Shown here in pieces: positions 11,911-14,759 of a stretch of 18,596 nt of DNA. This DNA is from a virus (taxonomy: Duplodnaviria > Heunggongvirae > Uroviricota > Caudoviricetes). Location: IMG/VR virus record IMGVR_UViG_2703718820_000014; one strand, given 5' to 3'. The position numbers and the translations under genes were made by a program. Below the pieces are notes generated by a model. It searched no databases and was not told the origin of the DNA. It saw only the letters and a program-made list of their open reading frames with translations. Positions within the stretch are counted from its first letter, which is position 1. Each line of letters begins with the position of its first letter.

Positions 11911-12270
11911 TTATAATCCAACCAGGCTTTCCAGGGGGATACCAAATTGATTATGAAGACGGCGAATCATTGGTAACGTAAGGCTTCTGGTACCATTCAA
12001 CACCTCATAAACCCGATTTTTTTTCCCAATTGCGGGTTCCAAATCTTTCACAGTCAGCCCCTGCTGTTCCATGCGAAATCTTATAGCTTCAATTGGGGAT
12101 GGTGGCTCAATGGGATAATGTTTTTTTTCATATTCCTCTATTAGCAAACACATCACCTCAAAAAAATCCCCCTCAGGCGTGTCAATTTCGGGCTCATTGT
12201 CGAACATGGGTTCAACAGCACGCAACGCGGCTTCATAATCTTGCTCTGTACGAATAGGTTTGATGTTCAT
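11911..12270 (-). CDS. higA: HigA-like antitoxin (HTH)
   Basis: 119 aa; motifs IKPIRTEQDYEAAL and GLTVKDLEPAIGKKNRVYEVLNGTRSLTLPMIRRL are typical of HigA. It begins 2 nt after the HigB-like stop. Confidence 0.75.
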   Translation of the reverse strand: MNIKPIRTEQDYEAALRAVEPMFDNEPEIDTPEGDFFEVMCLLIEEYEKKHYPIEPPSPIEAIRFRMEQQGLTVKDLEPAIGKKNRVYEVLNGTRSLTLPMIRRLHNQFGIPLESLVGL

Positions 12271-12272
12271 GC

Positions 12273-12575
12273 TTACTCCAGTTCGATGGTATCAGCATCA
12301 ATAGCATCGTATTCCTTGTGGTTTCCGATGAATTTAACAAATACCCATCCTCGCTGATACGCAATTGCAACAATTAAACGGTAATGATTACCTTTTATGT
12401 TGAATACCACGCGCCGGTTTTTCAATATACTGGCCGTTCGGTATTGTGCCTTAATGTCTGCTGGGCTTTTCCAGTCAGCTTTTGCCGCCTCATCCACCCA
12501 TGCCCTTAGCGGTTGTTCTGCATCAGGATTCTCCGCCCAAAAATCCCTGAGTGTTTTAACTGAGATAATCTTCAT
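12273..12575 (-). CDS. higB: HigB-like toxin (RelE/ParE superfamily)
   Basis: 100 aa from ATG 12575; VFNIKGNHYRLIVAIAY...FIGNHKEYD matches the HigB pattern. Toxin-first gene order as in higBA. Confidence 0.7.
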   Translation of the reverse strand: MKIISVKTLRDFWAENPDAEQPLRAWVDEAAKADWKSPADIKAQYRTASILKNRRVVFNIKGNHYRLIVAIAYQRGWVFVKFIGNHKEYDAIDADTIELE

Positions 12576-12620: not shown

Positions 12621-12675
12621 TTACAAATTTAATAATAAACATGTTGACCAGTTAAATTTTAATTTGTAAATTGTA
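12621..12675 (+). promoter_or_regulatory. Candidate early-left (dicB-operon type) promoter with operator motifs
   Basis: TTGACC (12644-12649), 17-nt spacer, TAAATT (12667-12672), flanked by ATTACAAATTTAA (12620-12632) and ATTTGTAA (12662-12669), the same motifs as in the cro/repressor intergenic region. Confidence 0.4.
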
Positions 12676-12849: not shown

Positions 12850-13002
12850 ATGGATACGCTCAATCTTGGCAACAACGAATCTCTGGTATGCGGTGTGTTC
12901 CCTAACCAGGACGGCACGTTTACCGCGATGACGTATACCAAAAGTAAAAAGTTTAAAACCGAAGCTGGCGCGCGTCGCTGGTTAGCCAGAAACACTAACT
13001 GA
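12850..13002 (+). CDS. ydfA: YdfA-like small protein (50 aa)
   Basis: ATG at 12850 preceded by GAGGT. MDTLNLGNNESLVCGVFPNQDGTFTAMTYTKSKKFKTEAGARRWL matches the recalled Qin YdfA sequence. Confidence 0.6.
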   Translation: MDTLNLGNNESLVCGVFPNQDGTFTAMTYTKSKKFKTEAGARRWLARNTN

Positions 13003-13269
13003 TTAGCACCAGTAAAAACAGGTTGCCACTGGTTAATTTACCCTGAAAAGTCAGGGCACAACAGAAAGCACACGGCGAAGGCGTCTTTTCCTTAGAAGGC
13101 TTGTCGTTAGATTTCTTCGACCGTGTGCTTCCGGTTGTGGCAATCCGCGAAATGGCGCGGCGGTAAATATGGCTGGGGGTTTTTATTTCTTTTCCCCTCA
13201 TTGAGGACACCGGGTTGTCAGGTTGACCATATGCCTGAGTGACAACCCCGCCACAACATCTCCATGTTT

Positions 13270-13329
13270 CAATGGCAGTGGTACCTTTGGCGGCATCAGT
13301 TTATTAGCTTTCTGATGTCCGCCCTTTTT
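13270..13329 (+). ncRNA. dicF: DicF-like small RNA (cell-division inhibitory sRNA of dicB operons); ends approximate
   Basis: Stem ggcggcatcag (13289-13299) pairs with ctgatg-t-ccgcc (13312-13323), followed by T5 (13325-13329). The hairpin and its 3' flank closely resemble the recalled E. coli dicF locus; the 5' part is diverged. Confidence 0.55.
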
Positions 13330-13520
13330 AAAGTGAATTTTGTGATGCGGTGAATGCGGCTAAGCGCACGCGGAACAGTTAAAACCGTAAAGTGGTCTTT
13401 TACGGGGCGTAACGGGCATACTTCTGTATTCCGGCGTTAATTGTTAACTGGTTAACGTCACCTGGAGGCACCAGGCACTGCATCGACAAAGTTCACTTCG
13501 GTGATGAAAGGTAAGAGAAA

Positions 13521-14375
13521 ATGTTGAATGTAGCTATTGAAAACCAGAACGGGTGGAATTATAGTGCACCTGCACCTCATAAAACGGGTGCCGGGCGTGG
13601 AAACCCGATGATGATCAACGCGCATAACCGCGCTCAGGCGGTTTTTTTATGCGTCAAGCACAGCCACATTCAAATTATGGTGGGGCGTGCAGGGCAGCTG
13701 CAAGGCTGGCCGGCTCCGTTGGTCACCGGTATTTCCACCCCTGTACGTCTCACCACCTTTATGGTCGTGGAAAACCTCGGTGGTGAGTTATTTAAACTGA
13801 TCAACGAGGCTGCCATCATGGCTACTACCCTTACCCTTTCTCACCCTGACGTAACCATCGAAAATGGTCGCGCAGTCACCACGTCTGTTGCAGTTGCAGA
13901 GTTCTTCCACAAACTGCATAAAAACGTCATTCAAAAAATTGAAGCTCTGGAATGTTCCGACGAATTCACTGAGCTTAATTTTCAGCCCAGCGAATACACC
14001 GACACAACCGGGCGCAAACTCCCTATGTACCAAATCACCAAAAACGGCTTCGTTTTCCTGGTGATGGGCTTCACCGGCAAAAAAGCCGCTGCATTTAAAG
14101 AAGCCTACATCGCTGAGTTCGATCGCATGGAGAAAGAACTGCGCCAGAATAACGCCCCGTCTCCCGACAAAATGATTCACGGGGACGGACGTACCCTGGT
14201 TATCCGTCTCGACGAACACGGCAATATCAAATTCACTGAAACCGTTCCGGACGGCGCAATGGTCTGCACCCTGGATACCTTCCAGTTTTATCTGGAGAAA
14301 CAAGGCTGGACTCTTGTAAACCGGAGCGCAATTAAAAATATGACTGTGGAGCAATTACTAAAAATTCATTGTTGA
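13521..14375 (+). CDS. Rha-family phage regulatory protein (Rha domain starts near Met at 13818; 99 upstream codons are open in frame)
   Basis: The region MATTLTLSHPDVTIENGRAVTTSVAVAEFFHKLHKNVIQKIEAL...FVFLVMGFTGKKAAAFKEAYIAEFDRME is typical of the Rha N-terminal domain. ATG 13521 has a modest SD; ATG 13818 has GAGG 8 nt upstream. Confidence 0.7.
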   Translation: MLNVAIENQNGWNYSAPAPHKTGAGRGNPMMINAHNRAQAVFLCVKHSHIQIMVGRAGQLQGWPAPLVTGISTPVRLTTFMVVENLGGELFKLINEAAIMATTLTLSHPDVTIENGRAVTTSVAVAEFFHKLHKNVIQKIEALECSDEFTELNFQPSEYTDTTGRKLPMYQITKNGFVFLVMGFTGKKAAAFKEAYIAEFDRMEKELRQNNAPSPDKMIHGDGRTLVIRLDEHGNIKFTETVPDGAMVCTLDTFQFYLEKQGWTLVNRSAIKNMTVEQLLKIHC

Positions 14376-14385
14376 GGACGCGATA

Positions 14386-14574
14386 ATGGAAACGTTATTA
14401 CCAAACGTTAATACGTCTGAAGGGTGTTTTGATATTGGTGTTCTGCTCAGTAACCGGGAGTTTACTGAAGATGCCATTAAGATGAGAAAATATGAGCCTT
14501 ATCTTCTCAATGATAATTCCATACTCTCCAGAATTGCCCTTCTTAAACTTGGTATTTTCGGAGGGCAGCAGTGA
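14386..14574 (+). CDS. dicB: DicB-like cell division inhibitor
   Basis: 62 aa; the N-terminus METLLPNVNTSEGCFDIGV...FTEDAI matches the recalled Qin DicB sequence. ATG lies 10 nt after the Rha stop. Confidence 0.7.
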   Translation: METLLPNVNTSEGCFDIGVLLSNREFTEDAIKMRKYEPYLLNDNSILSRIALLKLGIFGGQQ

Positions 14575-14759
14575 CTTCTGCATTTGCACTGGTGATGACG
14601 GTTTTTCTTATAACGGGTGAGCCACAGAATGTGATTACCGGAATTTATGCCAGTAAAGAATCATGCCTCCGTGCAAGAGACGAGCAAAAAATTTCTGGCG
14701 AATGCCTCCCGTTAAAAAAAGTATCGCTGTACCTGAATAACGAAATACCGGCTGGATAA
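14571..14759 (+). CDS. ydfD: YdfD-like small membrane (lysis-type) protein
   Basis: GTG at 14571 overlaps the dicB-like stop (GTGA) with GGAGGG upstream. Hydrophobic N-terminal segment MTSAFALVMTVFLITG and a C-terminal NNEIPAG resembling recalled YdfD. Confidence 0.55.
   Translation: MTSAFALVMTVFLITGEPQNVITGIYASKESCLRARDEQKISGECLPLKKVSLYLNNEIPAG

Follow-up and report, generated by a model that had tools for sequence, protein, structure and literature searches.

Genes and RNAs around the spacer

The window analysed here is the whole stretch of 18,596 nucleotides (IMG/VR record IMGVR_UViG_2703718820_000014; Caudoviricetes). Its gene order, comprising divergent HTH repressors, DUF1391 (ydfA), a small RNA locus, dicB, DUF1482 (ydfD), an exonuclease and an integrase, matches that of the K-12 prophage Qin. 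The window comes from a lambdoid prophage of E. coli, which in the matching genome, E. coli strain 48, adjoins yccA. The RNA under study lies within a 520-bp non-coding spacer between the DUF1391 gene and a Rha-family ORF, and an insert of IsrK, C4 and rha stands between it and dicB (Table 1). The absence of a convincing protein-coding ORF from this 520-bp stretch, as described previously, was borne out: no plus-strand ORF of at least 40 aa was present in 13003–13520, and RefSeq annotates nothing in the spacer of a genome that is 100% identical over 13000–13530. STnc100, C4 and isrK are the only Rfam families that reach their gathering thresholds in the window.

Table 1 Features of the small RNA locus and its surroundings (positions in the window)
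Feature	Position	Strand	Evidence
STnc100, full copy, late region	605–813	−	Rfam 168 bits
Sigma-70-like promoter candidate TTGACC-17-TAAATT, 5′ of the ydfA-like gene	12644–12672	+	Consensus scan only
ydfA/ydaF-like DUF1391 gene, 51 aa, first of the early-left (dicB-type) operon	12850–13002	+	Pfam DUF1391 E 3.9e-29; RefSeq
Long stem-loop, predicted RNase III substrate	13050–13145	+	MFE −39.9 kcal/mol, z −5.3, 0/200 shuffles as good
Predicted mature sRNA, 56 nt	13274–13329	+	Fold and sub-threshold Rfam DicF match
5′ tail GGCAGTGGTACCTTT, free, 15 nt	13274–13288	+	
Stem 5′ arm GGCGGCATCAG	13289–13299	+	
Loop TTTATTAGCTTT, 12 nt	13300–13311	+	
Stem 3′ arm CTGATG-T-CCGCC, T13318 bulged	13312–13323	+	
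U5/T5 run	13325–13329	+	
Conserved leader 3′ of the terminator, homologous to the K-12 dicF-dicB and kilS-kilR spacers	13330–13520	+	Alignments
STnc100-like stretch in the leader	13345–13483	+	Sub-threshold Rfam, 29.1 bits
Annotated Rha-family ORF	13521–14375	+	Pfam Phage_pRha aa 120–205, Phage_ASH aa 14–108; RefSeq
Promoter-like site 5′ of IsrK, TTGAAA-17-TATAGT, 10/12 matches	13537–13565	+	Consensus scan
IsrK-family RNA	13572–13648	+	Rfam isrK 65.7 bits, gathering score 50
C4-type antisense (immunity) RNA	13673–13760	+	Rfam C4 73.5 bits, gathering score 45
dicB, cell-division inhibitor	14386–14574	+	Pfam DicB E 1.4e-36; RefSeq
DUF1482/ydfD-like gene, 3′ of dicB	14571–14759	+	Pfam DUF1482 E 6.6e-16; RefSeq

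The promoter candidate ahead of the operon sits between the divergent HTH repressor genes and ydfA, and is a possible counterpart of dicBp. It is a weak candidate, because such sites are no more numerous in the region than in shuffled sequences. The interval from the repressor genes to the ydfA-like gene also contains a HigB/HigA-type toxin-antitoxin pair (11911–12575, minus strand). The same slot holds a RelB/RelE pair in strain 2015C-3121 and no such pair in strain A8; its content differs among strains, and it is therefore a variable cargo slot beside the immunity region.

Two further observations concern the annotated genes. The Rha-family ORF begins 50 nt ahead of IsrK and then runs through C4, and its Rha domain match covers only aa 120–205. 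The Phage_ASH match coincides exactly with these two RNAs, and IsrK is immediately preceded by a good sigma-70-like promoter. The start of the ORF is probably over-extended, and the Phage_ASH match may here be a translation of RNA genes. In strain 48 (L001 1666–1917), three tRNA genes (Arg, Arg, Ile/Met) lie beside a DNA-methyltransferase gene; the matching place in the window is free of tRNA genes and has the full STnc100 copy. Coordinates in the window and in strain 48 are offset by 1065, then by 1001 and then by 998, with a 3-nt difference within rha. The window prophage is therefore related but not identical to that of strain 48.

Structure of the RNA and its relation to DicF and KilS

The plus strand at 13274–13329 reads GGCAGTGGTACCTTT-GGCGGCATCAG-TTTATTAGCTTT-CTGATGTCCGCC-C-TTTTT and forms a hairpin (MFE −17.6 kcal/mol) with 11 bp and a single bulged U in the stem, whose GGCGG...CCGCC base and following U5 run form the 3′ end. 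The T-run occurs 3′ of the hairpin on the plus strand only, which makes the hairpin a terminator of transcription running rightward. A 5′ end near 13274 is predicted from alignment to the mapped 5′ end of K-12 DicF, after a conserved TCAAT. The preliminary description gave accurate coordinates and an accurate account of this hairpin and T5 locus, as re-reading of the sequence confirmed.

The fold alone is unremarkable compared with shuffled sequences (z only −2.26; 6 of 200 shuffles fold equally well), and no Rfam match reaches the gathering threshold, as would be expected of a chance hairpin unrelated to dicF. The RNA exceeds chance because of homology, not because of fold strength. The spacer at 13003–13525 aligns end to end with the ydfC-dicF-dicB spacer of K-12, with both flanks near-identical in long stretches; together with the gene order and the Rfam E-value of 2.5e-6, this refutes an accidental hairpin, to which we assign next to no credence.

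Several features tie the window RNA to DicF (Rfam RF00039; b1574 in the K-12 Qin prophage). Both occupy the same site in a repressor-controlled early-left operon, after DUF1391/ydfA and before dicB, with homologous flanks on both sides. The GGCGG...CCGCC terminator stem and U5 run are found in both, and so are the TCAAT that precedes the mapped DicF 5′ end and, further upstream, the hairpin predicted to be cut by RNase III. The 3′ flank was said to resemble that of K-12 dicF, and the 62 nt quoted there carry two mismatches to K-12. The evidence thus supports the window RNA as a homologue of the dicF locus in both position and sequence. It is separated from dicB by the IsrK-C4-rha module, which K-12 DicF is not.

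The dicF core itself is among the most diverged parts of the alignment between the two spacers. The membership cut-off of the Rfam DicF model is a gathering score of 48 bits; the model aligns over its full length to 13276–13324 with 36.4 bits (E 2.5e-6 in a 561-nt search, 13000–13560). The Rfam search proposed earlier as a check therefore returned a full-length but sub-threshold match and nothing at the gathering threshold. The same model gives 61.1 bits for an allele whose 3′ half is canonical, 39.1 bits for KilS, 38.8 bits for the G-type allele described below and 36.4 bits for the window allele.

Divergence ahead of the stem was noted in the preliminary description, and the 5′ tail does differ (GGCAGUGGUACC in the window, UUUCUGGUGACG in K-12); the K-12 5′ sequence given there, TTCTGGTGACG, is correct according to the alignment. 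The divergence is not confined to that part, however. The loop and inner 3′ arm are replaced as well (UUUAUUAGCUUUCUGAUGU in the window, UUUUACUCCGUGACUGCUCUG in K-12), and this replacement can also be written as TTTATTAGCTTTCTGATGT for TTTTACTCCGTGACTGCTCTG. The hairpin stem of the window is more fully paired than that of DicF, and less of the 3′ half is therefore exposed, which counts against a base-pairing sRNA. The description as a DicF-like sRNA with a diverged 5′ (seed) region thus holds for the homology of the locus (flanks, gene order, terminator scaffold and sub-threshold Rfam match) and fails at the gathering score. With a score close to that of KilS, the RNA is more aptly regarded as an allele class of its own within a DicF/KilS family.

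The second named member of this family is KilS (b4833), located between ydaF (DUF1391) and kilR in the Rac prophage of K-12 and annotated as 98 nt (L204 6406–6503, minus strand; NC_000913.3 1418405–1418502). KilS was validated by northern blot and Hfq RIL-seq, with yncL as RIL-seq partner (Bar et al. 2021, PMC8175672), and a promoter of its own was reported as possible (PMC8175672). Judged by the same flanks, the lower stem and its DicF score of 39.1 bits, KilS is a positional and sequence homologue of DicF and represents the GU-rich-tail allele of the family. No paper in the literature searched named KilS and DicF together; a 1994 paper on dicF-related prophage sequences lay outside that search.

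KilS resembles the window allele in its site within a sister prophage, in a DicF score that is likewise sub-threshold, and in an identical lower stem and 3′ flank (GGCGGCATCAG...CTGATGTCCGCCCTTTTTAAAGTGAATTTTGTGATGCGGTGAATGCGGCTAAGCGCAC). It differs in its GU-rich tail CAUUGCUGUGUGUAGUCC and in a loop that is different from, and longer than, that of the window allele, so that only the lower stem and flanks are common to the two. KilS also lacks a segment of approximately 130 nt (about 13150–13270) that stands between the upstream hairpin region and the RNA in Qin and in the window.

The leader on the 3′ side of every DicF-like allele (L053, L005, L013, L003, L023, L007 and L204) gives a sub-threshold STnc100 match of 28–36 bits. 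These stretches and the full STnc100 copy of the window have the motif GGTGAAT...TCACCNGGAGGCACCNGGCA in common, and by sequence STnc100 appears to be homologous to the leader of division-inhibitor genes.

Predicted processing and target pairing

In K-12, DicF is cut from a polycistronic dicBp transcript, with RNase III yielding a 190-nt form and RNase E a 53-nt form (PMC10448788). The long stem-loop upstream of the window RNA has a K-12 homologue (L002 2160–2262; −38 kcal/mol, z −3.5), and by arithmetic the 3′ arm of the K-12 hairpin contains the point 190 nt 5′ of the DicF terminator, which fits the published RNase III species. Differences between the window and K-12 in this hairpin keep the pairing, as judged by eye (GCACACGG/CCGTGTGC vs GCGCATGG/CCGTGCGC), and the TCAAT context of the mapped DicF 5′ end is kept. 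The consensus scan found no sigma-70-like promoter directly upstream of the RNA, the nearest candidates being those at 12644–12672 and 13537–13565; this fits processing from an operon transcript.

By analogy with K-12 DicF, the spacer would be transcribed from a repressor-controlled promoter 5′ of ydfA. Cleavage of the long hairpin by RNase III would leave a precursor of approximately 200 nt, in which RNase E would create a 5′ end near 13274 by cleaving behind the conserved TCAAT. A fraction of the transcripts would stop at the GC-rich hairpin and U5 (13289–13329), which would supply an Hfq-type 3′ end; the remaining transcripts would read on into IsrK-C4-rha-dicB, the hairpin acting as a partial terminator. 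The product would be a 56-nt sRNA, probably Hfq-associated, made upon derepression of the early-left operon. Its accessible segments would be the 5′ tail GGCAGUGGUACCUUU and the loop UUUAUUAGCUUU. Neither is related to the parts of DicF that bind ftsZ, pykA, manX and xylR, and the RNA is therefore predicted to have other target mRNAs and to leave ftsZ unrepressed. We consider it reasonably probable, with ample room for doubt, that the window RNA is such a rare DicF/KilS allele, i.e., an early-left operon sRNA that is processed, ends at a terminator and has new seeds and different targets.

In the unprocessed transcript (13240–13283, plus strand), part of the 5′ tail (13273–13282) is predicted to pair with an upstream CCCCGCCAC (13246–13253). 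Such pairing would hide the seed until 5′ processing; K-12 has, by eye, no obvious equivalent of it.

The main rival to the sRNA reading, and a serious one, is that the hairpin is only a terminator or attenuator with an RNA-processing site, that the tail and loop drift neutrally, and that any released fragment has no function in trans. The hairpin would then set how much early-left transcription reaches IsrK-C4-rha-dicB (or kil). The behaviour of the same hairpin in K-12 favours this rival: it ends part of the operon transcripts, giving a 1146-nt species, and some transcripts read through, a 1608-nt species being found as well (PMC10448788). Against it, two alleles at the exact site, DicF and KilS, are experimentally supported base-pairing sRNAs with proven Hfq association, which we count in favour of the sRNA reading, and the putative signals for release of a small RNA (the predicted RNase III hairpin and the TCAAT context) are kept in the window. 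Further points on both sides come from the target searches and allele survey below; taken together, we regard a terminator without trans function as rather unlikely, yet with a real chance of being correct.

Target pairing was evaluated with ViennaRNA duplex energies in 24-nt windows plus opening (accessibility) energies; full-length duplexes were implausible, with very large loops, and the 24-nt windows were used instead. In mutational work, the 3′ region of DicF was shown to pair with ftsZ, and the 5′ end with xylR only (PMC5069750). The manX mRNA pairs with the 3′ end, with a footprint at G150–C167 (PMC5861419), and the DicF23 mutation, which impairs ftsZ pairing, also abolishes pykA regulation. 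With K-12 DicF, the scan recovered all four published sites: ftsZ (DicF nt 31–52 with mRNA −28 to −7 at the ribosome-binding site; hybrid −21.9, total −6.4), xylR (DicF nt 4–15 with mRNA +11 to +21; −11.4), pykA (DicF nt 25–43 with the ribosome-binding site) and manX (DicF nt 35–54 with mRNA 149–168, including the footprinted G150–C167).

The window allele had no favourable site in ftsZ from −120 to +60 (total 0 or worse; 150 of 150 shuffled tails were at least equal). Pairing with xylR is gone, with only −0.9 kcal/mol compared with −11.4 for DicF, and the pykA ribosome-binding site pairing and the manX G150–C167 site are absent from the scan. The value for pykA, −6.4, is at chance level (16 of 150 shuffles as good). 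A site at manX +3 to +13 reached −8.7 kcal/mol, with 7 of 150 shuffled tails as good; across four targets this is not significant, and manX was rejected as a target of the new tail. The target prediction against ftsZ, xylR and pykA that had been put forward previously as a check was thereby carried out, with no ftsZ or xylR pairing and pykA at the level of chance. It had also been suggested that the changed seed could alter ftsZ targeting. The 5′ change alone would not bear on ftsZ, because ftsZ pairs with the 3′ region of DicF; the predicted pairing with ftsZ and xylR is nevertheless lost, and both DicF seeds are gone because the 3′ region is replaced as well as the 5′ tail.

The window allele is thus predicted from these energies not to repress ftsZ, and it is not DicF either by the Rfam threshold or by target complementarity. 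The same locus, the same operon as dicB and the sub-threshold Rfam match could be read as signs of a functional DicF orthologue that still inhibits cell division through a different ftsZ pairing. That reading is improbable in view of the unfavourable ftsZ energies, the replacement of the segment corresponding to DicF nt 31–52 and the failed gathering score.

A search of the window itself (18.6 kb, both strands, the RNA's own antisense excepted) gave best values of −21.0 for the tail and −17.2 for the loop, within the shuffled range (shuffled-query means −20.1 and −18.1, respectively). These values speak against an action in cis or on the own prophage, e.g., by pairing with the rha, dicB or kil leader or with the IsrK or C4 RNAs, and so does the occurrence of the same allele before two different downstream modules. 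Such an action would suit the position of the RNA in the leader of toxic genes and its neighbours IsrK and C4, which are RNAs of prophage immunity or antirepressor control; we hold it to be quite unlikely all the same. Among 18 translation-start regions of the dcw interval from mraZ to secA, only rsmH +25 to +36 appeared, and this site is unconvincing, having three G-U pairs and lying outside the five-codon window. That the four DicF targets, the window and the dcw start regions yielded no target is in keeping with a terminator that has no trans function.

Allele diversity at the dicF/kilS site

Alleles were surveyed by scanning IMG/VR with the conserved 3′ flank, and by searching a species-representative genome set. 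In the genome set, the 18-nt flank gave mostly chance matches in unrelated phyla, and real matches occurred only in Escherichia and Shigella. Approximately 36 distinct alleles were found at the same position (120 IMG/VR contigs and the Escherichia/Shigella genomes). The outer stem GGCGG/CCGCC is present in all 21 aligned allele types, with one compensatory change from C-G to U-A. RNAalifold on the allele alignment gave only this 5-bp outer stem, the loop lengths being different, and per-allele folds were used; by these, all alleles form a terminator hairpin (−15.8 to −23.8 kcal/mol) with a U-run behind it. The window RNA has the site, flanks and terminator scaffold that characterise the proposed DicF/KilS superfamily, and it differs from other members in the variable tail and loop.

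Column entropy over 41 alleles peaks at the tail (13255–13284; 1.2–1.4 bits) and at the loop (13300–13314; 1.15 bits), with approximately 0.65 bits over the adjacent upstream 45 nt. It is near 0 over 13330–13389 and 13435–13494, the former range being biased by the search anchor at 13330–13347. The 5′ tail and the hairpin interior each occur in several types, which are mostly linked. Recombinants are present: a canonical tail occurs with another interior, the ftsZ-binding canonical interior occurs with a KilS-like tail, and one hairpin interior is common to four tail types. Conservation of the scaffold alone (outer stem and U-run), with the tail and loop varying freely, is what a mere terminator would show; the reassortment of tail and interior modules as if they were usable units argues against it, although recombination alone could also have this effect.

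The locus as a whole is present in 4641 of 5426 complete E. coli genomes. Canonical DicF occurs in 3975 of them (6701 copies) and the G type in about 108. The KilS type (1432 genomes, 81-nt query) and the window allele (5 genomes, four copies identical and one with three changes) were counted in separate searches. Four complete genomes carry the window allele unchanged over 81 nt, and 2 IMG/VR contigs carry it unchanged over approximately 105 nt; in the fifth copy, from strain A8, all three changes lie in the 5′ tail. It precedes IsrK-C4-rha-dicB in the window and three genomes, and stands directly before kil in two others. Its copies have a near-identical block of approximately 350 nt in common; that they are identical is thus a sign of common descent and no evidence of purifying selection acting on the RNA. 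The phage GenBank collection contained no copy of the window allele, only two partial matches of 85%.

The nearest sequence relative is the G-type allele (L053 and 10 other IMG/VR contigs). It has GGTACCTTTGGCGGCATCAGTTT and CTGATGTCCGCCC in common with the window allele, and STnc100-like, IsrK and C4 elements lie downstream of it too. The two differ in the tail (GATT in the G type, CAATGGCAGT in the window allele) and in the loop (TTTCATTGCTGG vs TTTATTAGCTTT), and the stem of the window allele is two pairs shorter. The window RNA is a rare, unannotated, re-seeded member of the DicF/KilS prophage sRNA gene family.

DicF is the textbook case of a prophage sRNA acting on host physiology, including cell division, sugar use and EHEC virulence. 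As a rule it is handled as one sequence, and a DicF study of 2016 based its conservation analysis on copies that were more than 99% identical. One scaffold with different seeds implies that "dicF" counts by Rfam or BLAST overlook relatives of distinct function, and that ftsZ repression does not follow from a DicF-like call based on position. We suggest, with more reserve than conviction, that the site is a hypervariable modular seed cassette, in which a fixed scaffold carries swappable tails and loops directed at lineage-specific mRNAs of the host or of rival phages. The window allele would be a third functional class in this cassette, beside DicF and KilS, one that has lost ftsZ control, kept its linkage to DicB/Kil and gained a new target. 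If the alleles are active, they amount to a naturally occurring set of seed exchanges on a common scaffold, from which one could learn how sRNAs acquired by horizontal transfer come to have new targets. Little is to be gained in practice from the window allele, at 5 of 5426 genomes, until its target is known; the occurrence of many seeds on one scaffold is the broader and more interesting point.

A minor observation concerns annotation. The six exact dicF/kilS matches listed (H33–H38, three per query) have no annotation beneath them, and dicF and kilS are therefore unlabelled in at least some RefSeq E. coli genomes.
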